A DNA stretch of 64,000 bases from Patescibacteria group bacterium (GCA_050953885.1 JBMNNJ010000001.1:527437-591436), one strand, 5' to 3'. Positions 35,300-53,729 are shown, counted from the first letter of the stretch. Numbers and translations are program-made. The notes: generated by a model not told the origin, from the sequence alone.

Positions 35300-36424
35300 A
35301 TGGCTAAAAAATTAAGCAAGAATAAAACCAGCACCCTTTCCCCGACTAAAGACATCCTCTCGCCTGCGGCAAGGGATTTATTGGCGCGAGGTAAAGATGA
35401 AGGGTTTTTAACCCAAGACGATGTGTTGGCGGTTTTTCCTGATGCGGAAAACCGTCTGGAGGAATTAGACGAGTTTTATAACCAAGCCCTTAGGGAAGGG
35501 GTGGATATTTTTGAGGCGATTGATCTTGAAGAGGCCGGGGAAGAAGATTTTGAAAAGCTAAGCCGTCAAATTGAGGAGCTGACTCTTCAGCAAAATGAGC
35601 CGCTGGATCCGGTGCGCAATTATTTGCGGGAAATTGGTCGGGTACCCCTTCTTAAGACTGATGAAGAGTATGAGTTAGCCAAAAAAGTGGCTGAGGGATC
35701 GCGGGAAGCAAAGCAGAAGTTAATTGAGGCAAATTTACGGCTGGTGGTTTCTATTGCCAAGCGCTATATTGGCCGGGGCCTGCCGTTTTTGGATTTGATT
35801 CAGGAGGGCAATAAAGGGCTGATCAGGGCGACCGAAAAATATGACTATCGGCGGGGTTTTAAATTTTCTACCTATGCCACCTGGTGGATTCGGCAGGCGA
35901 TTACCCGGGCCATTGCCGATCAGGCGCGGACGATTCGCATTCCGGTGCATATGGTGGAAACAATTAATAAGGTTTATCGTGCCACCCGTCAGCTGACACA
36001 AAAATTAGGTTATGAGCCAAGCGCGGCAGAAATTGCCCAAGAGCTTGACATCCCCGTCTCTAAGGTAAAGACGGTTTTTAAAATTTCCCAAGGCACGGCT
36101 TCTCTTCAAGCGCCGGTAGGCGAGGATGGTGATTCGGTTTTGGGCGATTTTATTGAGGATTCGGTGCAACTTTCGCCCTATGAGGAGGCTTCGCGAGAGC
36201 TTTTAAAAGAAAACATCGACGAAGTGCTTTCCTCGCTTACCGATCGGGAGGCCAAAGTTTTGCGGATGAGATTTTCTCTTGACGGCGATCAACCCCACAC
36301 CTTGGAAGAAGTGGGCCGTCATTTTGGCGTTACCCGGGAGCGGATTCGCCAAATTGAAGCCAAAGCCCTGCGCAAGCTAAAGCACCCCTCCCGCCGCCAT
36401 AAACTTCAGGATTATTTGGATTAA
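35300..36424 (+). CDS. rpoD: RNA polymerase sigma-70 factor
   Basis: Region 2 '[50 protein letters not shown]'; region 4 HTH '[20 protein letters not shown]'. Confidence 0.9.
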
Positions 36425-36593
36425 AAACTGCCTTACCAAAAGACGCGAATTAACGAGTAATGGGCGCGCCCTGAAGCGCGCTAATCCATTCTATTCTGAC
36501 CGCATTATTTAACTTGTACAGAGAAAAAATTTAGGCTGGATGAAGTGGTATTTTAAACGAGAAGTTGTTATAATGCGAGTTAATAATTTGATA

Positions 36594-36646
36594 TTCCTCG
36601 GTAGCTTGGTTGGTAGACCTGCCTGCCGGCAGGCAGGGCGTCCGCC
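36594..36646 (+). pseudogene. partial duplicate of tRNA-Asn 5' half (positions ~1-31) carrying a 20-nt perfect palindrome insertion (36618-36637, 'cctgcctgccggcaggcagg')
   Basis: 'ttcctcggtagcttggttggtagac[cctgcctgccggcaggcagg]gcgtccgcc' versus genuine tRNA 'tcctcggtagctcagttggtagagcgtccgcc' at 36918. Confidence 0.6.
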
Positions 36647-36668
36647 GTTGTTTTTGTATGATTTAAGT

Positions 36669-36914
36669 ATGTATTATGTTTATGTGATAAAAAGTGAAAA
36701 AGACAATAGTCTTTATAAGGGGATTACTAACTGCCTATCAAGGAGGTTGAAAGAACATAATTTGGGGAAAAATCAATCAACAAAAAGTAAAATTCCTTAT
36801 GTTTTGGTTTATCATGAGACGGTTGATAACAGGATGAAAGCGAGAGAAAGAGAAAAGTGGTTTAAAAGTGGTGAGGGCAGAGAGTTTTTGAGAAAAATTA
36901 TTTTAGAAAAGTGA
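36669..36914 (+). CDS. small GIY-YIG nuclease (COG2827/UPF0213-like, tRNA-adjacent type)
   Basis: 'YYVYVIKSEKDNSLYKGITNCLSRRLKEHNLGK...IPYVLVYHETVDNRMKAREREKWFK'. Start at internal ATG 36669; the ORF-track N-terminus would read through the tRNA fragment. Confidence 0.7.
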   Translation: MYYVYVIKSEKDNSLYKGITNCLSRRLKEHNLGKNQSTKSKIPYVLVYHETVDNRMKAREREKWFKSGEGREFLRKIILEK

Positions 36915-36917
36915 TAT

Positions 36918-36990
36918 TCCTCGGTAGCTCAGTTGGTAGAGCGTCCGCCTGTTAAGCGGCTGGTCGGAGGTTCGAGTCCTCCCCGAGGAG
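36918..36990 (+). tRNA. tRNA-Asn (anticodon GTT)
   Basis: Acceptor UCCUCGG/CCGAGGA, D-arm GCUC-AGUUGGUA-GAGC, loop CUGUUAA, T-arm GGAGG-UUCGAGU-CCUCC. Confidence 0.8.
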
Positions 36991-37176
36991 CACGGTCTTT
37001 CTTACTCAAAACAGAAAAGCAAGTTTAGTTTATCCTTAAAATACTTCAAAAACCTATTGAAGAGTGTGAGCTTTTATTTTCTCTGGAAAATAGCTCCTAA
37101 AAGTTGTTTTAGGAGAGACGGTAAATACGTTTTTTGTCAAAGCTTCAAAAAAGCAATAGAAAAATAATAGCTTTGT

Positions 37177-38265
37177 TTGGGAAAAATGATACAATATGGT
37201 GGAGATATGGGCAAGAAAGACAAAAGTTCGGCTAAAAACAAGGCCTCTTGGCATTATTTCTGGTTTTGGCTTTTAACATTAGGCTTTTTTTGGCTAATTC
37301 TATTTGCTGTAAAATTTGATTTTTCAGAAAACTCCTCTGGAGCTTGGCTAGTTTTATTTCTCCTAAATATCCTTTTAGGGATAGTTTTCTTCTTAAGATT
37401 TATTGGTAACCTTTTTCAATCTTTTAAAAATAAAGATAAAAAAGAACCCATAAGGTATGGTTTTGCCGCTTTAGCTTTAATAATTTTATTCTTTACTTCT
37501 TTCTATACAGCTTCCCCTATTGCCAAGGCCTACTTCGCCCTGTCAAGTAGCGAAGTTAAGGGAGAACAAACAGCTAATGATCCCGCCAAACTTTCTCAGC
37601 CTGTAGAAGAAGCTAGTAGCGAAAAATCAAAACCCTCGATAAACAACAGTAATAGCGTCAATATCAATACGGTTGAGTGTATTGGCCCTGACGGGAAACA
37701 TTTTGATACAACTCTAGAGGAATGTACAGCCTTAAATGAAAAATGGGGTGAAGAAGTAAATTATATGGTTGATTGCCCAATTCATCAAAGTTGTGGTGGG
37801 GGGACCAAAAGAATGGCTAAAAAAGAGTGTGATAATTCTATTTGTTGTGAGGTTGGCGGAGTTTGGGAGCTGTACCTTTCTAAAACTGCTTGTCAACAGG
37901 CTCAAGATAAATATTGGAAAGATTATTATGATGATCTTTATGGTAAGGAGAGCAAGGAGTGGGAGGAAGAGCTTAATGGGAGATATAGTAATTCATCCAA
38001 TAACGAAAATATCCCCTATTCAGTCCCTCAAAACCCAGTTCCTGCCAACACCCCTATACCAACAGTAAAAGCGGATAATAATTATGCGAACTTAAGATGT
38101 AAAGGAGATGTTCGTCGTTGGCTGGAGACTCAAAAGAGTTTATTACGGCAATATGCGAGAGCGAAGAACATGCTAAATAGTAGCTGGTATGATTATGGAG
38201 TTTTTAGATTGGAAAGGGAAGCAAAAAATAAATTAGACGAATGCGATATTCTCTATCCTGTCTAA
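37177..38265 (+). CDS. membrane protein with extracytoplasmic Cys-rich domain, hypothetical
   Basis: Three or four N-terminal TM helices, then 14 Cys in about 120 aa. Confidence 0.4.
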   Translation: MGKMIQYGGDMGKKDKSSAKNKASWHYFWFWLLTLGFFWLILFAVKFDFSENSSGAWLVLFLLNILLGIVFFLRFIGNLFQSFKNKDKKEPIRYGFAALALIILFFTSFYTASPIAKAYFALSSSEVKGEQTANDPAKLSQPVEEASSEKSKPSINNSNSVNINTVECIGPDGKHFDTTLEECTALNEKWGEEVNYMVDCPIHQSCGGGTKRMAKKECDNSICCEVGGVWELYLSKTACQQAQDKYWKDYYDDLYGKESKEWEEELNGRYSNSSNNENIPYSVPQNPVPANTPIPTVKADNNYANLRCKGDVRRWLETQKSLLRQYARAKNMLNSSWYDYGVFRLEREAKNKLDECDILYPV

Positions 38266-38353
38266 AGGTATTGAGAAAATTGCGATCGTTGTTCCTTATA
38301 ATTTTTAGTAAAATGATTTAAAGTATAGTTGTTGATATTTTTTATAAGCTTTT

Positions 38354-38662
38354 ATGAATAAAGAAATACAGAAAAGAAAACTTTTTTCTAAAAATAAAAA
38401 GACAAATTTGATTTTATTGATAGCGGGTCTGTTGGGGTTTATTAGCGGTGGTGCTGCAATTCAGTTTCCTGGACTAGTTGCGTTGATTGGCGGTGTTGGG
38501 GGATTAATTAAAAACAGGAAAATTGATGAAAAAGACAAAAAAATGCCTTGGGTGGTTTTGGTTTCGATTATTTTATTAGTTGTTGGTGTTATATCTCTCC
38601 TTGTGCTTTTTCTGATTAACCCAATTGAATCAATAGAGAGGTCAAGGCAGTTAGCTAACTAG
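38354..38662 (+). CDS. small membrane protein, hypothetical
   Basis: Two TM helices. Confidence 0.35.
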   Translation: MNKEIQKRKLFSKNKKTNLILLIAGLLGFISGGAAIQFPGLVALIGGVGGLIKNRKIDEKDKKMPWVVLVSIILLVVGVISLLVLFLINPIESIERSRQLAN

Positions 38663-38691
38663 ATTTTTAAGCAGTTAGTTTTCAATATTAG

Positions 38692-38991
38692 ATGAGTCTC
38701 AAAAAGCCTTCAATAATTGCTGGTGTTCTTCTTCTCCTTGCCATTCCCCCTATTTGGCCCTATGGTTATTATATTTTTCTTCGTTGGGTTATTTTTATTA
38801 CTTCAATAATTGTCGCTTGGGGATTCTATAAATCAAAACTAACCGCTTGGACATTTATTTTTGGGGCAATAGCCTTTTTGTTTAATCCAATAGCTCCAAT
38901 TTACTTGACTAAAAGCAACTGGATTACCATAGATTTTGTTTCGTCAATTTTTTTCTTTTTGGCAGCGTATTCAGCAAAGAAAAAAACATGA
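38692..38991 (+). CDS. small membrane protein, hypothetical
   Basis: Three hydrophobic helices; overlaps the next gene by 4 nt. Confidence 0.35.
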   Translation: MSLKKPSIIAGVLLLLAIPPIWPYGYYIFLRWVIFITSIIVAWGFYKSKLTAWTFIFGAIAFLFNPIAPIYLTKSNWITIDFVSSIFFFLAAYSAKKKT

Positions 38992-39980
38992 AAAAACTTT
39001 TATTGGTTTTGCTAGAAATATCTTTAGCCACGTTATGGTTGTTTAACTTCTGTGCAGGAATAGTGGGTGGGGCGTGGCTTTTGCTTTCTGGTGGATGGAA
39101 AATAGTTATTTTGGGGCTACTAATCTCAATTATCATGCCCTGGGCATATACCATAGCCCTTCTCCCAGCTTTCCCAATTACACTACTCTTGGCGAAAGTA
39201 GTTGAGAAAAAAAGTAGATTTTGGGTTTCTATGTTAGGATTTATTGTTGGTAGTTATCAATACCTCATATTGGCATTATGGGCGACGCTTGCTTTTGGGT
39301 GGTTTGTACTTGAATTTGAGGGCGGTTATTCACCTATTGCATTGATTTTATGGGGATACTCGGTTGTTATGGGGCCAATCGGTTACATGGCTTCAAAGGA
39401 AGTTTCTGATTCTACAGGAACTACGCTTGGGGTTCTATTCACCCAAATTTCATATATCACATTAGCAGTCAATTACCTTGTGGGTGGCAGTATAGAACAG
39501 GGCTACTTAATAGTGTGGCTCTTCCTGATTGTTTTTGCAGTGTTAGTTGTGTCGGTTCTTAATTTGGCTTTTCCCAAAAAAGCAGAGATCTCAGAAACCA
39601 CTTTGCCCATCATCGAGGATGGAAGAAAATATCCTACGTATTTTTCTAGATTGTTTAACGGAAGAATTAACAGAACAAGCTTTCTAATTGGAAATATTAT
39701 TATTTATGCGGTGGTTATTGCCCTAGTGTTCGTTTTAAATGAAACATTTTATAACATTGCAGCATATACAATCACGATAGTTTATAGTCTTTCTTTTTAT
39801 ATCAGGAGACTGCATGACTTAGGGAAAAGCGGTTGGTATATGTTGATAGGCCTAATCCCTCTTGCTAATTTAATCTTCTTGTTTTGGTTGCTACTCGCAT
39901 TGGGGCAAAATACTACCAACAAGTTTGGGAAACAGCCCTCAAAAGGAGTCAATATCAAAGAAATTTTAGCATTTGAATAA
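38988..39980 (+). CDS. polytopic membrane protein with C-terminal DUF805 domain
   Basis: 'RRLHDLGKSGWYMLIGLIPLANLIFLFWLLLALGQ' is the DUF805 signature. Confidence 0.5.
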   Translation: MKKLLLVLLEISLATLWLFNFCAGIVGGAWLLLSGGWKIVILGLLISIIMPWAYTIALLPAFPITLLLAKVVEKKSRFWVSMLGFIVGSYQYLILALWATLAFGWFVLEFEGGYSPIALILWGYSVVMGPIGYMASKEVSDSTGTTLGVLFTQISYITLAVNYLVGGSIEQGYLIVWLFLIVFAVLVVSVLNLAFPKKAEISETTLPIIEDGRKYPTYFSRLFNGRINRTSFLIGNIIIYAVVIALVFVLNETFYNIAAYTITIVYSLSFYIRRLHDLGKSGWYMLIGLIPLANLIFLFWLLLALGQNTTNKFGKQPSKGVNIKEILAFE

Positions 39981-40074
39981 TTTATGAACTAAACAATGAA
40001 TAGTGGGGTGGACTAAAAAGCTAGATATAGTTCTTTTTGTCTAAAAAGGTACTCTTTTAACCACTGTCTCATTC

Positions 40075-40290
40075 GAGTATCATCCAAGCGCGGGAGCCAA
40101 GCTTGACGAGAGGCCGAATCGGCTATCTTGTCAAAAGGATTTACCTAGTCAAATCGGACTTTTTGCTCTTTAACTCTAAGCCCTGAAGCACCATCTTCAA
40201 AAGCAGCCGTTTTTCGTGGGCTTCAGAACTTTCAAACACTTTCCCAGCGTTTTCAGCCAGTTTTAGCAGGTAAGATGAGGTTACATAGTA
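40075..40290. repeat. island repeat family R, copy 1
   Basis: 'gacgagaggccgaatcggctatcttgtcaaaaggatttacctagtcaaatcggacttttt...ctctaagccctgaagcaccatcttcaaaagcagccgtttttcgtgggcttcag'. Confidence 0.7.
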
Positions 40291-40500
40291 TTCCTCGTCG
40301 GCAAATTGTAGCTTCTCAATTTTCTTATTGATTGCCTTCTGTTTTGCCCGATACCCTTTTCGTTTTTTCTCTATAGTAGCTCTCAGTAATTTTCCGCTGC
40401 CTGGCGAATTGTTAAAAATTTTGGTAACCCTTTCTTAGCCCTCTGTAGATCTCAATAAAATTATACAAAAAACCAGGGTAAAATGGTATTATCAAAGTGA

Positions 40501-41541
40501 ATGAAAAAACATAATTTTCCTTGCCTTGTTCATGCCACTTTAATCTCTGCCCTTGTTTTGGCTTTATATTCCCTCTGGTTTGTCCTTCTTGACCGCAGGT
40601 TTGTTTTCCTCTATGGACATTTGCATAGCACTCCGTTTGATTTCAGGACTGTCAGTCGCTACTGGATGACTGGTTTGGTAGCAAGCGGTGCAGTTTTAAT
40701 CGCTTGCACAATCGTCAATCTGGTTATCAAAAAAGTGCGTCATGATTATCAACTGCCCGATTGGAAGGTAGTTTGGAAATATACCTGTTTAATTACGGCT
40801 TTACCTGTTTTTATTATCCTCACTTTTGTCGGTAAACCCCCAATACCCGCCTTGCTGTCTCTCTGGACTTTGGTAGTCCTTTTCGCTTCTTTAAGGCTGG
40901 CTTTGTATACCAGTAGCTTTATTGTTAATAACTTTCGCCAGTCAGTTTTTGCTTTCTTTGATGGTTTAGCCTTGATACCGATATTGCAGTTGCTTCCTCT
41001 TTCTTTTGATTATGGTTTGAGGAAAGCATTTCCACCAGTTACAGTAATCGCTCCACTGGTTATTATCTTGGTAGGATTATTTTGGTTGTGGATTATGACT
41101 TTGTTTTACAAGCGCTTCAAGCAGCCCTTTACTTCTTCAATAAATATCTTTCTCTCTGGCTTGGTTTCCACCTACCTTCTTTTGCCGCTTCTGCATTATG
41201 TTAACTCCCGCCCTGGATATATCAGGTATCTTTCCGATAGCGCTAACTTCTTTGCCAACGAAGTTTGGCTTCAGATAACTACTTTCCTGGTGGCTACTGG
41301 TGTTCTTTGGTGGATTGGTAAATGGAGAAAAAACAACGATTTCAATCCTGTCAAAAGCTTGCTGTTTTGGCTAACCCTACTTACTGTTGTCGGCTTCCTA
41401 ATAACGAATGTAACCGCAGGCAAGGAAACAGATATTTGGGTTTGTAAAAATGACCAGTGGGTAAAACAAGGCAACCCACCTTATGAAAAGCCTTTTGATG
41501 AGGAATGTGGGATAATTGATAAAGCATTCGAGGGATTATGA
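40501..41541 (+). CDS. polytopic membrane protein (at least eight TM helices), hypothetical
   Basis: Hydrophobicity pattern only. Confidence 0.4.
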   Translation: MKKHNFPCLVHATLISALVLALYSLWFVLLDRRFVFLYGHLHSTPFDFRTVSRYWMTGLVASGAVLIACTIVNLVIKKVRHDYQLPDWKVVWKYTCLITALPVFIILTFVGKPPIPALLSLWTLVVLFASLRLALYTSSFIVNNFRQSVFAFFDGLALIPILQLLPLSFDYGLRKAFPPVTVIAPLVIILVGLFWLWIMTLFYKRFKQPFTSSINIFLSGLVSTYLLLPLLHYVNSRPGYIRYLSDSANFFANEVWLQITTFLVATGVLWWIGKWRKNNDFNPVKSLLFWLTLLTVVGFLITNVTAGKETDIWVCKNDQWVKQGNPPYEKPFDEECGIIDKAFEGL

Positions 41542-41924
41542 AAATAAATCTTAGTTTCCTAAGCCCCGACCTTTGAACACATTGCTGTCGCTTGTTATAT
41601 TCTCATTGCCCCTTCTTCGAGAAAGAGCCAGGCTGCCAGATGGCGCGATTATTGAGGTTATTTATTACCGCCCAATCTTTCTTTTACCTCTTATTTTTAA
41701 ATGCAGGATTGGTATCCCTTCTTTTTGATGATTGGTTTCTTCCTGGTTATTTACTTTTCCGCCTTCCTGGTTGTGGCTATTCTTCACACACAATTACACA
41801 CCCGATGTGCAACAGATTACTCCTGTTTGGAAGAGAGCAAACAAGTCAAAAGGCTAAAAACCTATTAACTTCCTTGTTTTTAAACTCAGGATATTCGAGG
41901 TAGTTTACTCAGTCTGTTCTTCGA

Positions 41925-42130
41925 AAAACATACCATCGCTAGAGCCAACTTTGACGAGAGGCCGAATCGGCTATCTTGTCAAAGGGGTTTATCCAGTTAT
42001 ATCGGACTTTTTTACCCTTTATCTCTAAGTTCTGAAGTGCCATCTTCAAAAGCAGGCGTTTTCCGCGAACTTCATTCGGCAGGTGTTAAGCTATTCCACC
42101 TGGAAGGTGGAAATCACTTTAGAAAACGGC
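41925..42130. repeat. island repeat family R, copy 2
   Basis: 'gacgagaggccgaatcggctatcttgtcaaaggggtttatccagttatatcggactttttt...ctctaagttctgaagtgccatcttcaaaagcaggcgttttccgcg'. Confidence 0.7.
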
Positions 42131-42230
42131 GGCATGAATTTGGGAGATGAAAACTGGCCAATAAGGTACTATAAAGAAGTGCTGAGTGCCAGTTGAGCAA
42201 AAATTAAAACTCTGTTAACATACAACCAGA

Positions 42231-42809
42231 ATGAAATATATAGAGAAGGAAATAAAGTTTGAGATAAAGGATTTGCCGAAGCTTATTGATTGCTTAAAAA
42301 AGAACGGTGCGAAATTCCTAAATGAATCTAAAGAAAGAACGATCAGGCTAGATACTTCAGACGGCGCTTTGGAAAAAAAGGGCGTATTCCTTCGAGTAAG
42401 AGCGGGAAACAAGAACACAATCACGCTTAAAGAGAAGGTTGGTGATGACAGAGATGTTAGGGCAAGAAAGGAAACGGAATTTGAGATTAAGGATGTGGAT
42501 GCAATGGCATATATCTTAGAAAGATTAGGCTTTGACTATCTTCGGATTATGGAAAAATACAGAATTAATTTGGAATATAAGGGAACAAAGCTATCCATAG
42601 ATGAATTATCTATCGGATTTTACCTCGAAATTGAAGGGCCCGAAAGAAAGATTGAAGCGGTTGCCGAGGAATTGGGCTTTGATCTAAAAGAGAAAATACT
42701 GGTGACGTATTGGGATATTCTTGAAGAGTTTAACAAAAGGGATAAAACAAAAAGGAAAGATATCGTTTTCCCCAAAGAGTACCAGCCCAAACTTTTGGGG
42801 GCATACTGA
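42231..42809 (+). CDS. CYTH-domain protein (CyaB-like class IV adenylyl cyclase / triphosphatase fold)
   Basis: 'EKEIKFEIKD...GVFLRVR...ITLKEKVGDD...EFEIKDVD...LSIDELSIGFYLEIEGPE' alternating acidic beta-strands. Confidence 0.55.
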   Translation: MKYIEKEIKFEIKDLPKLIDCLKKNGAKFLNESKERTIRLDTSDGALEKKGVFLRVRAGNKNTITLKEKVGDDRDVRARKETEFEIKDVDAMAYILERLGFDYLRIMEKYRINLEYKGTKLSIDELSIGFYLEIEGPERKIEAVAEELGFDLKEKILVTYWDILEEFNKRDKTKRKDIVFPKEYQPKLLGAY

Positions 42810-42924
42810 AAGGCTTGTCCACCCGGAAAGTGTCTTAGCTTGACACCTGGAGTATATTTAGTTGTGTTTTATTACCAAGGAGTAAAAATATGCCAAGTGT
42901 GAACCTGGGACACCTGGAAGGTGT

Positions 42925-43060
42925 ATTTACCAACTTTTTGCCATCAAGCCTTAAGCCCTGAAGGAAGTGTCACCTTCAAAAGTAGCCGTTTTTCGTGGAC
43001 TTCAGAACTTTCAAACAACTTACCTGTGTTTTGGGCAAGCTTCAGAAAGTTGGCTTATTC
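42925..43060. repeat. island repeat family R, copy 3 (partial)
   Basis: 'ttaagccctgaaggaagtgtcaccttcaaaagtagccgtttttcgtggacttcagaactttcaaaca'. Confidence 0.65.
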
Positions 43061-43119
43061 ATTTTCTGATTGGTATAATGTCTTCATATAGTTAAACAAA
43101 TTTTGTTTACCGAAAGAAG

Positions 43120-43308
43120 GTGAATAAAATAATGAGTATTCGAAAGGAAGTATTGTCAATGATTCCTAGTGAGGTTATAGGGCCTTCTGGGCAAGAAAGA
43201 TTGGGTCTCGAGCAAATAGGGTTGAAAGAATTATGTTCAAAGACTGACTTTATGAGTACCAAGAGAGGAGGTAGGGAGCCAGGGGTTAGGAAATGGGGAA
43301 GAGGATAA
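43120..43308 (+). CDS. small ORF (62 aa), speculative precursor peptide
   Basis: Preceded by 'gaaggtg' SD-like sequence; directly upstream of the PqqD-like gene; otherwise unsupported. Confidence 0.15.
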   Translation: MNKIMSIRKEVLSMIPSEVIGPSGQERLGLEQIGLKELCSKTDFMSTKRGGREPGVRKWGRG

Positions 43309-43404
43309 GAGAAATTAAAAGAAGATTAAATTAGTGAGTGTGCCATGGTTAACACTTAAGGCGTAAGCTGTTTTAAAGGCAAGTCTTTTAAATTCTTAGT
43401 TAAT

Positions 43405-43677
43405 ATGTATTTTAAATTAAACAAGGACTCAATAATTTTCCTGGATTCTGATGCGCAAGAAGGTTACAAAACAATAGCCTATGACTGGAAGAATGATAAA
43501 ATTTTAGAAATCTCCCCTCCTCTTTATCATATTTTAAAAGCTTTAGATTCTTCAGGATCAGCGACCGAAGAAGATTTAGAAAAATGGATTAACACTTTTT
43601 CCGCTAACGATAATTCTGTAAAAAAAGCGATAGCTGATTTAATTGAGAGAGAGATAATTAACAAGTATGAATACTAA
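43405..43677 (+). CDS. PqqD-like small protein (putative RiPP recognition element)
   Basis: 90 aa; 'IIFLDSDAQEGYKTIAYDWKN...LYHILKAL' resembles the PqqD family; overlaps the next gene by 11 nt. Confidence 0.3.
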   Translation: MYFKLNKDSIIFLDSDAQEGYKTIAYDWKNDKILEISPPLYHILKALDSSGSATEEDLEKWINTFSANDNSVKKAIADLIEREIINKYEY

Positions 43678-45289
43678 TTTTACTTTTACTTTTTCGCCAA
43701 GTACATCCTCGCTTGAACAATTAAGCAAACAGCTTAAAGATGTTATTTTGCCGGCAAAGGTATTTATTGAGAACAAAGAGATGGCTGTCTGGGGCTATTT
43801 TTCAAGCTACAGGCCTGAAATATCTGAAAACAGTTTGGCTGACGAGTTAAAAAAATACGGCTTTGGGCGAATTGCAAACAGCGATTGTGATTATCTTTTG
43901 TTTGTCTGGGACAAACAAACCAAAAAACTAATGGTGGGGCTTGATAATATAATGAGCATTTCATGTTACTTCACTATCTTAGACAACCAAATTGTCTTTT
44001 CTTCAAGTTTTTCGGAAATTAAAAACACCGTCTCTTACCATCAACCATTAATAGCTGACTTGGACGGCTTATTAACATATGTAACAAACGGAATGCATTC
44101 AACGGAACGGACCATCCTTGATTCAGTAAAATCAATTCCTCCTGGAAGCGTGGTTGATTTTGTTTTTGAACCTGGTATCTCGTATCAAATAAGCTCTTGT
44201 GTTGATATTGACGGTTTTCTTAATTCTTTGCCTAAAGACGAATTTAAAGATGAAAAAGAGTTTGCAAAGGCGCTGGAGTTAGTCTTAACGGATGCGGTGG
44301 CGCGCCGTTTGGAAAAAATTCCGCAAGGGACCCATATTGGCTGTGAAATCTCAAGTGGTTTTGACTGCACTTTGGTTGCTTATATCATGGCCAAGCTTAT
44401 TGGTCCGGAGAATTTTTATTGTTATTCGTTTTATTTTCCAGAAGGTTATGGTACAGAAAGTTTGGCAGTTATTCGCAAATTTGCAGATAAACATTCTCTG
44501 CAGTTAAGAGCGGTAGAGCTTAATCCCAAAGAGGGCTATGCACGGGATTATTTCAAACTTTGGGAAAATGATGATCTTTTGCAACTGCGCGCTGATTACT
44601 TCGGCGATTATATAAAATTATTAGAGAAATATACCCCTCGTTTACTTTTTACTGGCCAACACGGGGATGAGACTTATTCTCTTAAGGAATTGCTGTTGAC
44701 CGCAAAATATAATCGCCAGATGAGTTATTTTGATAATGTCTGGTGGTTGAAAAAGGATAACCAGGCTGTGCTTTATACACAAAAGGGCTTGGATTTGCTA
44801 CTTGATAGGGAGAGATTTAATAGCCGAGGAAGGTATCCTGTGTTTTATTCAGACATTAATTTAGCAGAGACAGCCTTGATAGATCAAGTCTATAGGAATT
44901 TTGGAACTCGCGAGGTGTCCCCTTATTTGGATTTGCAGGTGCTGTCGGTGGGAATAAGGCGAGGTTCGAAAAAGAAAGAAATAAAGGATGAGAAACAGCT
45001 CTATTTTCGATATCTTGATCATATATTTATTCCCGAGATGTTTATTCCCAAAAGGGGAGGAACAGAATTCGCTTTGGATTTTCCGAGAAATCAAAAAACT
45101 TTAATATCTTGGGTAATGGAGAATTCTGTTTTAGCCCAATCTGGGTTGATAGATCCTAAAAAGATTATGCAGATGATGGCCAATAAAAATAGCCCCCTTT
45201 ACAAAGACGCGTTTGTGGCTTTAGCTTTCGAATATTTGGTGAGGGCAGATTGGTATTTAATCAAGAACAAAATAAGTCTGCCGATATGA
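43667..45289 (+). CDS. asparagine-synthetase-like (AsnB family) ATP-dependent amidotransferase/cyclase-like protein
   Basis: Degenerate PP-loop 'EISSGFDCTLVAYIM'; N-terminal domain without Cys1 resembles lasso-cyclase-type AsnB homologs; size 540 aa. Confidence 0.4.
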   Translation: MNTNFTFTFSPSTSSLEQLSKQLKDVILPAKVFIENKEMAVWGYFSSYRPEISENSLADELKKYGFGRIANSDCDYLLFVWDKQTKKLMVGLDNIMSISCYFTILDNQIVFSSSFSEIKNTVSYHQPLIADLDGLLTYVTNGMHSTERTILDSVKSIPPGSVVDFVFEPGISYQISSCVDIDGFLNSLPKDEFKDEKEFAKALELVLTDAVARRLEKIPQGTHIGCEISSGFDCTLVAYIMAKLIGPENFYCYSFYFPEGYGTESLAVIRKFADKHSLQLRAVELNPKEGYARDYFKLWENDDLLQLRADYFGDYIKLLEKYTPRLLFTGQHGDETYSLKELLLTAKYNRQMSYFDNVWWLKKDNQAVLYTQKGLDLLLDRERFNSRGRYPVFYSDINLAETALIDQVYRNFGTREVSPYLDLQVLSVGIRRGSKKKEIKDEKQLYFRYLDHIFIPEMFIPKRGGTEFALDFPRNQKTLISWVMENSVLAQSGLIDPKKIMQMMANKNSPLYKDAFVALAFEYLVRADWYLIKNKISLPI

Positions 45290-45895
45290 GGTGTAGACGG
45301 GATTGAAAAGGAGGTTTTTTATCGGGAATACCGAAAATACTCGGCTTTAGAAAGAAAATTAAGAGGAAATAACATTTGTATTAGAGGTTTAAAAATCTAT
45401 CTACCTCTTTGCTTACAAATTCAGGATATTCCAGCTCTTTAGTCTAGTCTGTCCTTCGGAAAACATATTTAGTCCGCCGTAGATTTTAGCTTTAGCGAAG
45501 GAGACCCATTATTCGAGCCTATTGCACACCCCTATCCCACACCTATTGCCCGATGTGCAACAGATACGGCACATCGGCAAGATCAGTTTTCCCAGGTTAA
45601 ATGTTTAATCTTCTCCAACTCTTTCTGATAATTGACTTGATTAAAAATAAATCTCTGGTTAAATTAAAAAACGATTTTCCTATTTATCCCGATGTGCAAG
45701 GGGTAAATCACATCGGGTGCGAAGCAGTGGCGTGAACTTGTAGGGTAGATTTTACCCCCGCTTCGTACTTATTTGGTCAACAGGGGCAAGTTAAATTCTC
45801 CCTAGTAAAATTGTTTAAATTTATGCTAAAATTTAGTTGTTGTTATCAAGAGGCTTTTTAAGAAAGCCGCAAGAATAATTTTTTAAAATAAATAT

Positions 45896-46330
45896 ATGTG
45901 TCCTGTTTGTACCGTGGGCGTGGCGGCGGGGTTGGGTTTATCTCGCTGGCTTAAAGTTGACGATGCCATTTCCGGTCTTTGGATTGGGGCTTTAATTTTG
46001 GCCTTGGCTATTTGGTTTTGGCGATGGCTTTACCAAAAGAAGGCCCAGAAACCGTTTAGCGCCCTCTTGCTTTTGGTGGTGGCTTTTTGGCTTTTAACTT
46101 TTCTTCCCCTTAATTATGCCGGCATTCTTGAGGACTGCCGCCCTCTTTGGGGGATGAATCGCTTAATTTTAAGTTCAATTATTGGCGTGTTGGTGGCGCT
46201 CTTGGGCATTTTGCTTGATAAAGATATTAGAGCCGGCAAAAAAGGCAAGGCGGCCTTCCCTTACCAAAAAGTGGTTTTGCCCCTTACCCTTCTTCTTTTG
46301 GCCAGCTTGATGATGGCCTTAGTTTCTTAA
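45896..46330 (+). CDS. membrane protein, hypothetical (four TM helices)
   Basis: Hydrophobicity pattern; N-terminal CPVC. Confidence 0.35.
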   Translation: MCPVCTVGVAAGLGLSRWLKVDDAISGLWIGALILALAIWFWRWLYQKKAQKPFSALLLLVVAFWLLTFLPLNYAGILEDCRPLWGMNRLILSSIIGVLVALLGILLDKDIRAGKKGKAAFPYQKVVLPLTLLLLASLMMALVS

Positions 46331-46338
46331 TTAAAACG

Positions 46339-46860
46339 ATGAATAAAGAGGAACTTTTAAAAAAAGTTAAAAATTTTAAAGAGAGCGACAAGGTTGATCT
46401 TTCTTCGAAAGAGGATTTAGCGGTGGCGGTGATGAATCTTATTAGCATCGAGGAGCATCTTTTCTTTACCTACAATAAAACCGGCGATAAGAAATATTTA
46501 GGTTTATTAAAAGAAGTCAGAGAAGGGCGCAAAAAGTATCTGGCCCAGATTGTTAAAAATCCCAAGGGAGAGCTTTGGTGCATTTCCAAGCATTTGTTGA
46601 GCGCTTCGATGAGGTTGATGGAGGTGGGCACCAAGAAATTAAATGAAGGAGAGGAAAAAGAGGCGAAGGAACTTTTTGAAAAAAGTTATGATCTTTGGAA
46701 TATTTTTTGGGGGCTTAACTTAGGCTTAATTGAGGCAAAAGATGTGCTGGCCGAAGAGGATGAGAAAGAAGAGATTAAGCTTGGGGAAGGGAAAAAGGTT
46801 TCCGTTTTTGCCAAATTGGGAGATGTTATCCAAAAAGTTTTGGATTGCTGTCGGGAGTAA
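46339..46860 (+). CDS. hypothetical protein
   Basis: ORF only. Confidence 0.35.
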   Translation: MNKEELLKKVKNFKESDKVDLSSKEDLAVAVMNLISIEEHLFFTYNKTGDKKYLGLLKEVREGRKKYLAQIVKNPKGELWCISKHLLSASMRLMEVGTKKLNEGEEKEAKELFEKSYDLWNIFWGLNLGLIEAKDVLAEEDEKEEIKLGEGKKVSVFAKLGDVIQKVLDCCRE

Positions 46861-47336
46861 AACAAAGTTTAGGTTATCCCCTTTTCCCCTCAATTTTAGT
46901 TTTAAGAATGAAAAGCCCGGTTTGTCAAAGAGATGGTTTCGGTTGCGGCATTGCCTGCCTTGCTTTTATAACCGGCAGGTCCTACGAGAAGATCGCGGAA
47001 GGATTAGATAAAGAAAAAGCCAAAACAGAAGGTTTTTCTTGTCGGGAATTAATTGCTTATTTGAAAAGTTTAGGATACCGGGCGGAGTACCATTATCTTA
47101 ACCAAAAGTGGCGAAAAAAGATTTATCGGGAGAAAGCGATTGTTTTTCTAAAACGAAGCAAAAAATTTCCTTCCGGTCATTATCTTGCTCGCTATCATAC
47201 TTTTTGGATGGATCCTTGGCTTAATTTCTCAAAAGAAAAAAGCTTGGTATTGGCCAAAGCAGGTTTTAGAAAAAGACTGCCGGGAAAGCCAATTTACGGC
47301 ATTTTTGTGACCGGACCGCAGAAAGTGAAAACATAA
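46845..47336 (+). CDS. peptidase C39-like (papain-fold) cysteine protease domain protein
   Basis: 'CQRDGFGCGIACLAFITGRSYEKI...GFSCRELIAYLKSLGY' carries the Gln/Cys catalytic-site pattern of the C39-like family. Confidence 0.45.
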   Translation: MLSGVKQSLGYPLFPSILVLRMKSPVCQRDGFGCGIACLAFITGRSYEKIAEGLDKEKAKTEGFSCRELIAYLKSLGYRAEYHYLNQKWRKKIYREKAIVFLKRSKKFPSGHYLARYHTFWMDPWLNFSKEKSLVLAKAGFRKRLPGKPIYGIFVTGPQKVKT

Positions 47337-47438: not shown

Positions 47439-47510
47439 TCTTTGTATAATGTTTAGATCTTGAATCAGGCTCAGAGTCTGCCCTGAATCTAACTCAGGGA
47501 TGACATTTAT
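47439..47510 (+). promoter_or_regulatory. conserved promoter/leader element copy 1 (extended -10 'tTGtATAATg' plus hairpin 'ccctgaatcta.ctcaggga')
   Basis: About 70 nt nearly identical to 53637-53710. Confidence 0.45.
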
Positions 47511-47762
47511 GCCCTAACCGCATAATATTTATACGAAAAATGTCGGCTAAAAATCAAACGAAAAGGAATTGGTGGAGATAAAAACTTCTTGAAGCGGACT
47601 TTATGGCGGGAGTTGTTTTTTAATTTTAAAAGAAATACGCTATTTTTAGCAATGGATAATAATCAGGCTAATTAAGCCGGCCAAATAAATCAGGCGCCGA
47701 GGGAAAATCAGTTTTCAAAGATTCTGGACGGGGCGGGAAGATATCTTTTCGGCCTTTTTCTT

Positions 47763-47978
47763 TTGGCGCTGCCGATGCTGATTATTATTTTGGTGAAGGG
47801 AAAACCTCTTCAATTTTTGTTTTTGGCTGCCTTAACGCCGCCGCTTAACCTTATTGTCGTGCCGCCGATTATTATTGGTTTGTATTTTATGCTTTCCGGC
47901 AAACTAAGGGCACGCTTGGATATCACTCTGCTGATTCTTTACGCCCTTCTTCTTTTTGGACTTGTAAAGCTGGAATAA
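47763..47978 (+). CDS. small membrane protein, hypothetical
   Basis: 71 aa with two TM helices. Confidence 0.25.
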   Translation: MALPMLIIILVKGKPLQFLFLAALTPPLNLIVVPPIIIGLYFMLSGKLRARLDITLLILYALLLFGLVKLE

Positions 47979-47997
47979 AGTGTTTATGCTTCTTGGT

Positions 47998-49365: not shown

Positions 49366-49458
49366 ATTACGCCGGCGCCGGCAATAGGGGGGCTCACCGT
49401 CCGTGGCAATTTAACAATTTATTCGTCATTTTCCATTCCAGTAAGCTATAATATAGAT

Positions 49459-49716
49459 ATGAAAAAATTAGCGCCTCTTTTTAAAGAAAAGCCCTATCTT
49501 GCCTGGGATGTAAAAGATAAGGGGGGTTTATCGGAAAAAAGTATTTTAGAACATATTTTAAATTACGGCAATTGGGACGACTATTTGGCGGCCGAAAAAA
49601 CTTTTGGTTTAAAAAAAACCAAAGCTTTCTATGAGGAGCTTAAAAACAAAAAAAGAGTTAACTTAAGGCCGCAGACCATCAATTATTTTGATTTATACTT
49701 TAAAAAATATGCATGA
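49459..49716 (+). CDS. small protein, putative partner (antitoxin-like) of the downstream nucleotidyltransferase
   Basis: Overlaps the downstream gene by 8 nt; start taken at internal ATG. Confidence 0.3.
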   Translation: MKKLAPLFKEKPYLAWDVKDKGGLSEKSILEHILNYGNWDDYLAAEKTFGLKKTKAFYEELKNKKRVNLRPQTINYFDLYFKKYA

Positions 49717-50320
49717 GGAAGTGCTTTCAGAAAAGCAAAAAAAACTTTTACCGCTTTTAAAAAGCTTCTCGGACAACTTTGGCTTGGTGGGCGGCACCGC
49801 CGTTGCCCTACAAATAGGCCACCGCCGCTCAATCGATTTTGACCTTTTTACTCTTAAAAAACTGGCGGGCGAAAATATTCGCGAGATTGTTAGGGAAAAA
49901 TACCCGATTCAGGAAATTATTACTGATGAGCCTAATGAACTTTCCCTGGCCGTTGAGGATGTAAAAATTACTTTTCTCAAGTATCCTTTTAAGATCAAAT
50001 TTTCCAAACCGTTTAAAGATATTATTAGCTGTCCTGACCTTCTCACTCTGGGGGCCATGAAAGCTTTTAGCTTAGGCCGGCGGGCGAAGTGGAAAGACTA
50101 TGTTGACCTTTATTTTATCTTTAAAAGCATCTCATTTGCCCAAATTGCCAAAAAAGCCCAAGTCCTGTTTGGAGGGGAATTTAACGAAAAGCTTTTTCGC
50201 GAGCAATTGGCTTATTTTGAAGACATTGATTATTCGGAAACAATTGACTATATGAGGGGGTTTGAAACAGAGGAGAAAGCCATAAAAGAAGAGTTAAAAA
50301 GGGTAAGTCTTCAGCGATAA
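49709..50320 (+). CDS. AbiEii/AbiGii-family nucleotidyltransferase (type IV toxin-like)
   Basis: 'FGLVGGTAVALQIGHRRSIDFDLFT' matches the DUF1814/AbiEii N-terminal motif. Confidence 0.55.
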   Translation: MHEEVLSEKQKKLLPLLKSFSDNFGLVGGTAVALQIGHRRSIDFDLFTLKKLAGENIREIVREKYPIQEIITDEPNELSLAVEDVKITFLKYPFKIKFSKPFKDIISCPDLLTLGAMKAFSLGRRAKWKDYVDLYFIFKSISFAQIAKKAQVLFGGEFNEKLFREQLAYFEDIDYSETIDYMRGFETEEKAIKEELKRVSLQR

Positions 50321-50832: not shown

Positions 50833-50920
50833 GCGCTGAGAATAAAGTCCCTACCTTGTCTGGTTTTTTTATCCTAAATAGCCCAAGGTAGGGACTTACC
50901 GTATTATAATATAGTTAATT

Positions 50921-53710: not shown

Positions 53711-53729
53711 TGTTCCAATAATAAAAACG

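Follow-up and report, generated by a model that had tools for sequence, protein, structure and literature searches.

Among the closest described systems are the ssrA-GIs of Dehalococcoides, low-GC islands that build up as tandem arrays downstream of a gene for a small stable RNA, with a serine recombinase of ~540 aa encoded on the reverse strand directly beside attL and with decayed members in the array that lack the integration module (McMurdie et al. 2011, PMC3146451). Hudson et al. (2015, PMC4383910) describe tRNA-linked islands as 'usually ... catalyzed by tyrosine integrases'. At the far end of islands of this Islander type lies a displaced piece of the tRNA 3' end, tens of nucleotides long. 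A further comparison is offered by archaeal integrases of the SSV1 type, in which attP lies inside the int gene and integration partitions the gene; these enzymes belong to the tyrosine recombinases and lose a large, essential portion of the protein through the split.

The window, i.e., the whole stretch of 64,000 nucleotides from a Patescibacteria group bacterium that was analyzed, contains an AT-rich island beside a tRNA-Asn gene. Very probably, this island is the decayed remains of successive integrations of small elements using a large serine recombinase (LSR). It is a genomic island of an ordinary kind, produced by a family of CPR integrases specific for tRNA-Asn, of which our literature searches returned no description. 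Like the ssrA-GIs, the locus combines low-GC tandem islands beside a stable RNA with a reverse-strand serine recombinase and decayed members. The ssrA-GIs, however, target the tmRNA T-loop with a 20-bp repeat and use a DsiA/DsiB recombinase pair, whereas the target here is the last 7 nt of tRNA-Asn and a single recombinase is found in L113 and L118; the intact relatives examined showed no additional small recombinase of the DsiA/CcrA-like kind. The locus also differs in its host (Patescibacteria), in an attachment site apparently inside the integrase frame, and in that only pseudogene 3' ends are left in the window. With Islander-type islands it shares a tRNA-abutting position, deviant composition, cargo, tandem accretion and decay, but the enzyme is an LSR, the core spans just 7-16 nt, and what marks the far end is the tail of the integrase itself. 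The SSV1-type systems are similar in having the site inside the integrase ORF, a tRNA target and ORF pieces at opposite element ends; here, in contrast, the exchange would affect only the last 35-40 codons, while the intact catalytic, recombinase and zinc domains remain beside the tRNA.

The island differs from the host in GC, GC3 and tetranucleotide usage. An AT-richer block with different codon use had been noticed by eye in the first-pass annotation, and both observations were borne out. GC is 0.376 in 36992-45895 compared to 0.423 for the remainder, the lowest value among all sliding windows of the same size (minimum exactly at 37001), and non-overlapping windows have a mean of 0.420 (sd 0.006). 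GC3 was 0.35 in 9 island ORFs vs. 0.44 in 51 others (Mann-Whitney p=1.6e-4), and the tetranucleotide distance to the window mean, a check proposed earlier, peaked at 233-268 at 36-46 kb and was 108-207 elsewhere. The AT bias could come partly from membrane-protein content, although GC3 is low too. The non-membrane CYTH, RRE and AsnB-like genes are also AT-rich. The block begins at 36992, directly beside tRNA-Asn (36918-36991). Its right boundary, previously placed at ~45850, is instead at 45518/45519, or at most 45767. Host mosaic repeats are indeed missing from the island, as had been stated, but this is neither island-specific nor diagnostic: all copies found lie within 2.1-35.3 kb or 61.3-61.8 kb, and the 15 kb that follow the island are likewise free of them. 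The features of the locus are as follows.

36595-36646, plus strand: displaced 5' half (positions 1-32) of tRNA-Asn (repeat D8 and sequence)
36669-36914, plus strand: GIY-YIG nuclease gene (PF01541, E=4.5e-12)
36918-36991, plus strand: functional tRNA-Asn(gtt), the island anchor (ARAGORN; Rfam, 69.2 bits)
36992-40052, plus strand: segment A, the most AT-rich part (GC 0.34-0.38), with four membrane-protein genes
40053-40099, plus strand: 3' part of a pseudo-tRNA-Asn, anticodon loop to CCA (alignment and junction sequence)
40100-40440, minus strand: integrase relic 1, residues ~389-493 of a 529-aa LSR
40501-41541, plus strand: 346-aa polytopic membrane protein of no family, cargo left in the middle element
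41852-41938, minus strand: native tail of type b, joined to a relic, RWYVFRRTD*VNYLEYPEFKNKEVNRFLA (tail tblastn, E=3e-9)
41942-42076, minus strand: integrase relic 2, residues ~445-489 (tblastn, 76% identity, E=9e-16)
42075-42963, plus strand: 889-bp insertion with a CYTH gene, splitting the second relic (comparison with L182)
42964-43095, minus strand: integrase relic 3, residues ~425-458 (tblastn, 85% identity, E=6e-8)
43132-45289, plus strand: three-gene cargo cassette (Pfam, NCBIfam, RRE fold)
43132-43308, plus strand: 58-aa peptide, conserved in L182 and L184
43405-43677, plus strand: 90-aa RiPP recognition element, RRE (AF2 fold)
43667-45289, plus strand: 540-aa AsnB-like enzyme (Pfam)
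45384-45518, minus strand: tail of type b alone, no integrase body, with a 38-nt hairpin insert at 45468-45505
45519-45767, no strand assigned: variable spacer with two hairpins (45549-45577 and 45688-45716)

We show that the integrase relics derive from LSR genes. The first-pass annotation had described a private repeat family of ~200 bp and no visible integrase. The three repeat copies are real (40056-40271, 41904-42074 and 42933-43050; ~79-82% identical) but they are 3' ends of LSR genes and no repeat family, and it is as this repeat that the integrase survives, pseudogenized. Six-frame translation gave ...LAENAGKVFESSEAHEKRLLLKMVLQGLELKSKK and VRFD*VNPFDKIADSASRQAWL... on the minus strand. 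The translation had 102 homologues, all from Patescibacteria. P0102 extends into PF13408 Zn_ribbon_recom (32.2 bits, cutoff 25.3). A profile search returned 2634 matches, including proteins of 485-540 aa with Resolvase, Recombinase and Zn_ribbon_recom domains, where the relic match is the extreme C-terminus. An intact 529-aa integrase matched the window by tblastn only at 40082-40395, 41942-42076 and 42965-43045. Relic 1, which is 69% identical to the L118 integrase (tblastn, E=2.9e-31), contains one frameshift and one in-frame stop, and stops or frameshifts are present in all relic copies of the window. The catalytic Resolvase domain with its serine nucleophile is absent, as only residues ~389-493 survive and tblastn gave no other match in the 64 kb. 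Relic 2 (3' half) and relic 3 (5' half) are one second relic that has been split; the two are continuous in L182. The total is two LSR relics, both on the minus strand and reading toward tRNA-Asn, as in 39 intact loci.

The second relic is split by the CYTH insertion, which is the later of the two: L182 positions 9383-9634 correspond to 41824-42074 of the window and 9594-11438 to 42964-44842. The CYTH gene itself lies at 42231-42809 (PF01928, E=1e-14). Bordering the insertion are duplicated relic sequence (~41-68 nt) and 30-nt direct repeats containing a hairpin (42080-42109 and 42894-42923), as seen from repeats D4, D5 and D9 and from the hairpin fold. L182 and L183 are an independent replicate of the arrangement, in which tRNA-Asn on the plus strand is followed by minus-strand relics and the same cassette (84% nucleotide identity) lies beside an unsplit relic and tail. 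The setting in which the cassette and relic of L182 adjoin tRNA-Asn is unrelated, with gmk upstream in place of rpoD.

Full-length relatives (485-540 aa) were found in dozens of Patescibacteria contigs, and we show a link between this LSR family and tRNA-Asn. Of the 79 metagenome loci retrieved, 39 have an integrase whose 3' end overlaps that of tRNA-Asn(gtt) in antisense, tRNA-Gln being used instead in two further loci, and fragments P0059 and P0053 have the same antisense overlap with tRNA-Asn. L113, L114 and L118 have exact terminal overlaps of 123-127 nt, typical of circular assemblies. These contigs, 6.4-7.6 kb long, lack a tRNA and encode an integrase with a contiguous, conserved native tail of 35-40 codons, alongside Rep-like, HTH and restriction-modification genes. 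In 11 measured loci (L108, L110, L115, L132, L137, L143, L145, L148, L150, L151 and L158), the tail occurs by itself 6-11 kb upstream of an intact integrase that abuts the tRNA and is encoded on the same strand; several further loci have such a piece in a comparable upstream position. Both end-overlapping (circular-type) and integrated forms are thereby shown to exist elsewhere. The attP, attL, attR and attB sequences all contain TGGCTCC, and in L110 the tRNA 3' end recurs as a 16-nt direct repeat at a distance of 7.4 kb. The separation of the tails fits a crossover in this 7-nt core, the complement of the GGAGCCA end of the tRNA.

These observations suggest a route by which the array may have formed. 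The elements would be small (about 6-11 kb), integrative and plasmid-like, and would use an LSR with the attachment site within the 3' end of its reading frame, in the order body, ...ASRQxWL, then the conserved tail of 35-40 residues. Recombination would occur within TGGCTCC, matching the last 7 nt of tRNA-Asn, where we infer the crossover position. Upon integration, the integrase body would come to point into the tRNA in antisense, with the native tail left by itself at the far end; further integrations in tandem would then bring body and tail together again at junctions within the array. How many integrations took place, and in which order, is likewise what we infer.

Short motifs that had been noted near the relics are real, with CCCGATGTGCAA occurring three times vs. 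0.19 expected and a 78-nt pair at 41855-41932 and 45390-45467. The 'aaa.tcaggatattc' motif is the native integrase tail, antisense of EYPEF. The tail at 41852-41938 runs into relic 2 via the core TGGCTCT and putatively forms an attP-like internal junction. At 45384-45518, tail b stands alone and thus marks the distal, attR-type junction of the array. This piece corresponds to attR-type pieces of L108, L110 and others. In L110 the gene next to it is AsnB-like; in L090, L179 and L180 it is Erm-like. L090, a 95%-identical strain, departs from the window exactly at 45518/45519, has a different 98 nt in place of the spacer 45519-45767, and shares host sequence with the window again from 45768.

At the tRNA-proximal end, the GIY-YIG gene sits between the displaced tRNA 5' half and the intact tRNA-Asn. 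It is a separate small insertion outside the integrase array, and the same gene is directly 5' of tRNA-Asn in L100, L105, L109, L123, L132 and L142; tRNA 5'-half repeats are also present in L100, L121 and L142. The displaced copy, interrupted by a 20-nt palindrome (CCTGCCTGCCGGCAGGCAGG, 36618-36637), had a Smith-Waterman score of 45 vs. a shuffle mean of 17.3, reached by 0 of 2000 shuffles. The resident tRNA-Asn ends in GGAGC-A without an encoded CCA. The pseudo-tRNA at 40053-40099 is joined to relic 1 via the core GGGAGCCA, a fusion that is probably an attL-type junction. Compared with tRNA-Asn of L123, L142 and L149 it scored 37 vs. 15.6 ± 3.0, reached by 0 of 3000 shuffles, whereas 133 of 3000 reached its score against the resident gene; it represents another allele. 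It also extends to the anticodon loop, exceeding the 7-16-nt core found at other loci. Its different allele and long extent mean that it is not explained by simple displacement from the present gene, which counts against the array explanation.

Segment A encodes membrane proteins of 362 and 102 aa, DUF6804 and DUF805. It contained no integrase or tail trace, and tblastn with element core genes matched nothing there. No relic directly follows the resident tRNA-Asn (tblastn), which also counts against an array. The segment may have been brought in by the same integration route; a DUF6804 homologue (55% identity) in L101 lies within a decayed element upstream of an intact integrase.

On the minus strand, the block runs from host DNA through tail b (45518-45384), the peptide/RRE/AsnB-like cassette, relics 3 and 2 split by CYTH, tail b (41938-41852), the 346-aa membrane protein, relic 1, the pseudo-tRNA (40099-40053) and four membrane-protein genes to the functional tRNA-Asn. 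It thus holds at least two decayed elements, the 3-kb tRNA-proximal segment and the later CYTH insertion. The relics, the joined and lone tails, the junctions and the strain divergence at 45518/45519 together argue for a decayed tandem array. Replication, excision and catalytic integrase sequences are gone, and the array is therefore fixed and immobile; its intact ORFs are cargo only. Serine integrases are not expected to target attL, which makes the formation of tandem arrays hard to account for and counts against the explanation. The island was present in every contig of the same population (99.8-100% identical) and no empty site was found among them, which counts against the explanation as well. 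L090 is the only close variant and carries an Erm-like gene instead of the AsnB-like gene left of the same tail-only piece, its contig ending 1 kb into the island; for GTDB relatives, RpoD identity is merely 60-66%.

Foreign DNA was integrated at tRNA-Asn, as initially proposed, but not as one element. The picture of a single, recent, still mobile tRNA-Asn element, with its integrase outside the window or too divergent, agrees with the tRNA-adjoining position and deviant composition of the block. It is already contradicted by the two independent relics and two tail pieces that subdivide the block, by the stops or frameshifts in all relics, by the fixation of the island in all conspecific contigs and by a relic spacing of 1-2.5 kb vs. 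6-11 kb in intact elements; no Rep, HTH or catalytic integrase sequence was present (tblastn), and we give this reading very little credence. A degraded prophage, the least probable of the alternatives, would also leave a tRNA-adjacent block with an integrase remnant, but the island proteins had no PHROG structural, packaging or lysis match, only matches to a membrane 'moron' and two families of unknown function and weak GIY-YIG endonuclease matches. In addition, the integrase family is absent from IMG/VR except for one 28%-identity match, and its intact relatives are plasmid-like (Rep-like, HTH and restriction-modification genes; circular-type contigs).

A native, vertically inherited membrane-protein region, with low GC from hydrophobic coding and relaxed selection and with regulatory or RNA repeats, is highly improbable. 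Five ORFs are polytopic membrane proteins, no presence/absence polymorphism occurs within the species and no Rfam family besides the tRNA was found. Yet the repeats translate to an LSR C-terminus at 69-85% amino-acid identity, GC3 is lowered and not GC1 and GC2 alone, the non-membrane genes share the AT bias, a 95%-identical strain has other cargo at the distal junction, and the same cassette and relic occur by a tRNA-Asn at gmk. Slightly less improbable, but still very unlikely, is that the C-terminal fragments were kept as useful, e.g., in the form of small proteins, made up of the coiled-coil and the last zinc-domain strands, that shield the tRNA-Asn site by blocking integrases that arrive. 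Among the best 150 profile matches, only 12 are ≥400 aa, although many database 'fragments' may look short merely because contigs are short, which inflates the fragment count. Many fragments are called as intact 87-aa ORFs from the same internal Met, and fragments persist beside tRNA-Asn on long chromosomal contigs; however, 87 aa is what an ORF caller yields at the first ATG after truncation, and all window copies are disrupted. The 3' ends survive because the adjoining essential tRNA shields neighboring DNA from deletion, with no function needed.

Among the genes of the locus, Pfam confirmed GIY-YIG, DUF6804, DUF805, CYTH and Asn_synthase, in agreement with the CYTH and AsnB-like genes named earlier. 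Five of the six membrane proteins then proposed are clearly multi-pass, including the DUF805 protein; the sixth (41592-41903) is doubtful, having one hydrophobic segment and overlapping integrase-tail sequence. PADLOC detected 0 defence families across all 10 island proteins. The PqqD-like assignment fails by Pfam but holds by structure: the AF2 model (pLDDT 84) has an RRE fold, with the lasso B1/RRE protein TbiB1 (5v1v_A; prob 1.0, TM 0.60) as the best PDB match and RRE-containing RiPP enzymes as all the next matches. As in lasso clusters, a small peptide gene precedes a PqqD-like RRE and an Asn-synthetase-like enzyme without an N-terminal Cys. Unlike lasso clusters, the cassette has no B2 transglutaminase-like leader peptidase, here or in L182-L185, and the peptide C-terminus (KRGGREPGVRKWGR) is without the Gly/Ala-x6-8-Asp/Glu ring geometry. 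The AsnB-like enzyme matches PF00733 (29 bits, cutoff 21), whereas the lasso cyclase model NF033535 is far below its cutoff (23.8 vs. 525 bits). A C39-like gene at 46845-47336 is host DNA, also present in L090. The cassette adjoins the relic in L182 and is a tandem duplicate in L184/L185. In one sample, an 803-bp deletion within the AsnB-like gene is ongoing decay.

The block next to the tRNA-Asn(gtt) gene, whose call at 36918–36991 held, differed in composition from its surroundings. GC content was 0.376 in 36992–45895 vs. 0.423 for the remaining window (~42% for the whole window), the lowest value among all sliding windows of equal length (the minimum begins at 37001); non-overlapping windows gave a mean of 0.420 with a standard deviation of 0.006. 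One-kilobase bins between 37 and 46 kb ranged from 0.34 to 0.41. Tetranucleotide distance to the window mean peaked in four 4-kb bins at 36–46 kb (233–268 × 10^-3, vs. 108–207 elsewhere). Third-position GC was 0.35 in nine island ORFs vs. 0.44 in 51 ORFs outside (Mann–Whitney p = 1.6e-4), which argues that the amino-acid composition of membrane proteins does not by itself account for the AT bias. The first-pass annotation had described an AT-richer block with different codons, and all three measures agreed. Its GIY-YIG, DUF6804, DUF805, CYTH, and Asn_synthase assignments were reproduced as Pfam matches. Of the six membrane proteins it counted, five ORFs were clearly polytopic but the sixth (41592–41903) was doubtful. 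The island does lack the host mosaic repeats, but these are missing throughout 35.3–61.3 kb, so their absence is not island-specific. These intergenic repeats consist of 8-nt-periodic units (TTTGAGAT / TTTGCGTT and AAGATACT / AAGAGACT), with at least 10 copies per family, found in the window only in 2100–35270 and 61340–61810.

Three copies of a private repeat and two short motifs had also been reported, and all were present above chance. The copies did not prove to be a repeat family of the island's own and, contrary to the earlier statement that no integrase was visible, they are by homology the 3′ remnants of pseudogenised genes for large serine recombinases (LSRs). No ORF of at least 60 aa covered them. 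Minus-strand translation of copy 1 had to pass one frameshift and one in-frame stop (...KKRKGYRAKQKAINKKIEKLQFADEEYYVTSSYLLKLAENAGKVFESSEAHEKRLLLKMVLQGLELKSKK / VRFD*VNPFDKIADSASRQAWLPRLDD...), and copies 2 and 3 yielded overlapping portions of the same peptide. This relic peptide had 102 homologues, every one a short ORF of patescibacterial or metagenomic origin; two of them (P0053 and P0102) reached N-terminally into a zinc ribbon (YYHCTQY.GKHG); P0102 passed the PF13408 Zn_ribbon_recom threshold. A profile search of 1.84 billion representatives returned 2634 matches. Among the best 150 of these, 12 were at least 400 aa long and aligned at their extreme C-terminus. Four of the five long matches scanned (P0104, P0118, P0122, and P0136) contained Resolvase, Recombinase, and Zn_ribbon_recom domains, and the fifth (P0124) contained Zn_ribbon_recom alone. 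An intact 529-aa member matched the window by tblastn in three places only:

40082–40395, minus strand: relic 1, residues 389–493
41942–42076, minus strand: relic 2, residues 445–489
42965–43045, minus strand: relic 3, residues 432–458

The identification as LSR 3′ ends follows from these matches and from the domain content of the long homologues. Pfam returned nothing relevant for the spliced relic peptide, since no Pfam model covers the LSR C-terminal extension. By tblastn, no other core gene of the intact elements left a trace in the window, and a permissive Rfam scan of 36400–46000 found the real tRNA alone.

For two fragment ORFs among the homologues (P0059 and P0053), the opposite strand carries an overlapping tRNA-Asn(gtt) gene. 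A metagenome scan with full-length P0104 as the query returned 79 loci. In 39/79, tRNA-Asn(gtt) lies on the opposite strand and its 3′ end is overlapped by the integrase 3′ end; 2/79 use tRNA-Gln, and most of the remaining loci stopped at a contig edge. The recurrent C-termini ...WLPGxDSNLRP arise from antisense translation of GGTTCGAATCC...GGAGCCA. Viral contigs searched with P0104 gave a single match, at 28% identity. Three contigs of 6.5–7.7 kb (L113, L114, and L118) had exact terminal overlaps of 123–127 nt, the usual signature of circular assembly. Their genes specify Rep-like (390 aa), SpoVG-like, and HTH (67 aa, excisionase-like) proteins alongside a restriction-modification pair and the serine integrase; across the integrase loci, Rep-like genes were present in 53/79 and HTH genes in 55/79. 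A tRNA scan found none in L113, and no tRNA stood at the integrase end of any of the three contigs, where the integrase instead runs on after ...SRQSWL into a conserved tail, PLKDLFCNHKLEFDISLNDLKIAF.... In L152, P0019, and P0106, the integrase continues without a break into a second tail type (tail b), (E/x)(K/R)WxxFRxxDWxxxLEYPE(F/L)TxK.... In integrated loci, bodiless tails lay on the same strand 6–11 kb upstream of an intact, tRNA-abutting integrase (separation measured in 11 loci: L108, L110, L115, L132, L137, L143, L145, L148, L150, L151, and L158), and in several further loci a solitary tail occupied a comparable upstream position. The four kinds of junction aligned as follows:

Free form (L118): CGTCAATCT-TGGCTCC-CCCTAAAGG
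Integrase/tRNA junction (L110): CAAGCT-TGGCTCC-TCGGGTAGGATTCGAACC
Distal junction (L110): GAAGGA-TGGCTCC-CCCTAAAAG
Unoccupied tRNA (L006): GAAC-TGGCTCC-TCCTCGAGGATTCGAACC

All four had the core TGGCTCC in common, and in L110 the tRNA 3′ end is present as a 16-nt direct repeat with its copies 7.4 kb apart. From the shared core, the separation of the tails, and this repeat, we infer that recombination takes place within or beside TGGCTCC, which is complementary to the last seven tRNA bases. On integration, the body of the integrase would stay beside the tRNA, and its last 35–40 codons would be moved to the other end of the element. These elements form a coherent serine integrase family with hundreds of members in public metagenomes, in both end-overlapping (circular-type) and integrated forms. 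The family appears to target specifically the final 7 nt of the patescibacterial tRNA-Asn gene, with the attachment site inside the integrase frame. Tandem arrays were found in the window and in L110, L123, L164, and L182; serine integrases are not expected to take attL as a target. The resident tRNA-Asn ends in GGAGC-A-CGG (36988–36994) and does not encode CCA, and GGAGCCA, equal to the integrase core, ends nearly all other retrieved tRNA-Asn genes. Because of this difference, the present resident site may be a poor target for the integrase.

Read in the direction of the integrase, the window contains the following pieces:

45767–45519: spacer of 249 nt, hairpin-bearing
45518–45384, minus strand: tail b without a body, interrupted by a 38-nt hairpin insert (45505–45468) and abutting the AsnB-like 3′ end
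45289–43132: cargo, comprising a 58-aa ORF, a 90-aa protein, and a 540-aa AsnB-like gene
43095–42964, minus strand: relic 3, one half of the second relic
42076–41942, minus strand: relic 2, the other half of the second relic
40440–40100: relic 1, preceded by a 346-aa membrane protein
40052–36992: segment A, the tRNA-proximal part, with four membrane-protein genes and the lowest GC

Relics 2 and 3 are halves of one relic, since it is unbroken in L182, a contig that holds the cargo cassette at 84% nucleotide identity. Relative to L182, the CYTH gene lies within an 889-bp insertion (42075–42963), which has a 41–68-nt diverged target duplication of relic sequence and, near its ends, 30-nt direct repeats that each contain a CACCTGGAAGGTG hairpin. 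Relic 2 passes via TGGCTCT into another tail b (41938–41852), leaving body and tail contiguous, as would be expected at the junction of two tandem elements. The reported motif aaa.tcaggatattc is the antisense of the EYPEF codons in this tail. The other motif, CCCGATGTGCAA, occurred three times (0.19 expected) at 41801–41829, 45549–45577, and 45688–45716, and two of the copies supply the 5′ arms of hairpins with a 9-bp stem (z = −4.9 and −3.8) in the spacer, which L090, a strain 95% identical to the window, lacks. A bodiless tail b also stands beside a cargo gene in L110 (AsnB-like) and in L179 and L180 (Erm-like).

Relic 1 is joined through TGGCTCC to 47 nt resembling the 3′ two-thirds of tRNA-Asn, from the anticodon loop to CCA, and containing a 5-nt insertion (an alignment gap). 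This pseudo-tRNA scored 37 against the tRNA-Asn allele of L123, L142, and L149, compared with 15.6 ± 3.0 for shuffles (0/3000 reached the score); its match to the resident tRNA was weak, and 133/3000 shuffles reached that score. The relic 1 tail had no match among the fetched loci. Owing to the 5-nt insertion, WLPRLD is followed by DTRMRQW and not by SNQGPIA, and the tail is explained as frameshifted antisense tRNA. As for the allele mismatch, either the middle element came with its donor's attL or the resident gene has since been replaced. Other candidate tRNA remnants were rejected. Positions 40020–40052, considered as the 5′ part of a complete pseudo-tRNA, were not significant. The score of 45468–45530 as a displaced tRNA-Asn 3′ half was reached by 1718/2000 Smith–Waterman shuffles, and that of its L090 counterpart by 404/2000. 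No integrase trace was found in segment A, and no relic directly follows the functional tRNA.

The cargo forms a three-gene cassette, which also occurs at L184 916–5235 and L182 9762–11438. The 90-aa protein had no Pfam match; its AlphaFold model, built from a 14-sequence alignment (pLDDT 84), was structurally closest to the lasso-peptide B1 protein TbiB1 (prob 1.0, TM 0.60), and the next matches (McbB, MadB, TbtB, TruD, and CteB) all contain RiPP recognition elements. The upstream peptide ORF is conserved (58 aa in the window and 55–58 aa across loci), with the C-terminus KRGGREPGVRKWGR. The AsnB-like protein, which has no Cys2, meets the Pfam Asn_synthase threshold and falls far under the lasso cyclase model, and no B2 leader peptidase was found within the cassette. 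The cassette is tandemly duplicated in L184/L185 and adjoins ATP-grasp (MvdD-like) genes in L182. A PADLOC scan of the island proteins returned nothing, and a PHROGs scan nothing phage-like. We read the cassette as RiPP-like, related to lasso systems but not a member of them, and it may represent an undescribed type of RiPP in Patescibacteria.

The island was present in contigs 99.8–100% identical to the window from at least seven other samples; two contigs stop at relic 1. One sample (JGI 3300053716; L085 8676–9898) carried at 45794–45798 an IS of 1223 bp that encodes a 370-aa rve_3/HTH_32 transposase and has a 5-bp target duplication; it is absent from the window and the other samples. In another (JGI 3300065810; L092), 803 bp are deleted inside the AsnB-like gene (43938–44740), and contig L093 ends there too; some of the population is losing this cargo gene. 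Given its presence in all conspecific contigs together with these structural variants, the island is old and fixed in the species, and its erosion is continuing. The 95% identity of L090 applies to the shared downstream DNA. This strain shares the bodiless tail b; to the left, an Erm-like 23S methyltransferase gene replaces the AsnB-like gene, and to the right, it departs from the window exactly at 45518/45519, with homology resuming at 45768. A 99%-identical relative of the L090 Erm-like protein was found only on contigs of up to 1.3 kb. In the remoter Erm loci L179–L181, which are not at tRNA-Asn, a tail-b piece directly follows the gene.

The nearest genomes by RpoD (Shapirobacteria/Microgenomates) were only 60–66% identical, so GTDB relatives are too distant for a synteny test. 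A tRNA-Asn lies just downstream of rpoD in L002, L004, and L006 and in a Saccharimonadales genome (L037), which argues that the anchor tRNA is ancestral at this position. Nothing beyond this adjacency is shared with the RpoD relatives, and the sequence that follows differs everywhere. L182/L183 contains a plus-strand tRNA-Asn, minus-strand relics, and then the cassette 9 kb downstream; with gmk, not rpoD, upstream, it is an independent replicate of the window architecture.

The interpretation of foreign acquisition at tRNA-Asn was thus right. As a decayed genomic island the block is ordinary, and what makes it interesting is the integrase family that it reveals. Integrases that target tRNA genes are almost always tyrosine recombinases. 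An attachment site within the integrase ORF is a hallmark of SSV1-type archaeal tyrosine integrases, whose integration separates a large part of the protein, whereas in the Patescibacteria family just the last 35–40 codons are exchanged. The formation of classical tRNA islands is usually put down to tyrosine integrases (PMC4383910). The nearest described system to the window array is that of the Dehalococcoides ssrA genomic islands, which are low-GC, tandem, located downstream of tmRNA, and in some cases decayed, each encoding beside attL a reverse-strand serine recombinase of ~540 aa (PMC3146451). The literature searched, of incomplete coverage, contained no description of serine-recombinase elements at tRNA-Asn in Patescibacteria, which does not establish novelty.

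That the tail exchange is functional in a family of small integrative plasmids that spans the CPR and that, separately, the protease-less cassette specifies an undescribed Patescibacteria RiPP class is, taken together, improbable in our estimation. If true, the integrase frame spans its own attachment site, a conserved 35–40-residue tail is kept only in the free element, and the integrated enzyme gains an antisense-tRNA tail. The tail would then be a built-in sensor of integration state, setting the direction of recombination or the stability of the integrase. 

With the relics identified as LSR 3′ ends, the previously unexplained AT-rich block and its private repeat become a record, dated by its decay, of how a single tRNA gene was invaded repeatedly, and the cargo genes of the block can be told apart. 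Patescibacteria have tiny genomes and few known mobile elements, and we know of no genetic tools for them; a compact site-specific serine integrase with a universal target could therefore be a practical engineering handle. The family also helps explain how reduced genomes gain restriction-modification systems, resistance-type methyltransferases, and peptide-modification cassettes.

Other insertions were observed nearby. An insertion of ~270 bp (36595–36917), with GIY-YIG as its sole gene, lies between the intact tRNA and a displaced tRNA-Asn 5′ copy, which consists of positions 1–32 plus 15 nt of upstream flank. GIY-YIG genes also stand directly 5′ of tRNA-Asn in L100, L105, L109, L121, L123, L132, and L142, in some cases with exact tRNA 5′-half repeats (33 nt in L100), and adjoin other tRNAs in L006 and L164. 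The layout suggests a further type of mobile element, one targeting the 5′ side of tRNA genes. A Shapirobacteria locus (L181 2647–6383; GCA_002788935.1) has five separate GIY-YIG genes in 4 kb beside an Erm-like gene. A 6.1-kb segment (47512–53652) encodes a 455-aa deacetylase/glutaredoxin-like protein, AbiEii-like, DUF5320, DUF134, and YibE/F proteins, and a 217-aa protein. Direct repeats of ~60–106 nt (47452–47511 and 53653–53712; 80% identical) flank the segment, and L090, which lacks it, retains a single repeat copy. The segment represents another island of the insertion/deletion type. Short GC-rich palindromic inserts interrupt otherwise homologous sequence in tail b (45468–45505; GTCCGCCGTAG...GCGAAGGAGAC), in L110 (4105–4128; the related CCGTAGCCTTGGCGAAGGA), and, 20 nt long, in the displaced tRNA 5′-half copy (36618–36637; CCTGCCTGCCGGCAGGCAGG), and seem to behave like tiny mobile hairpins.
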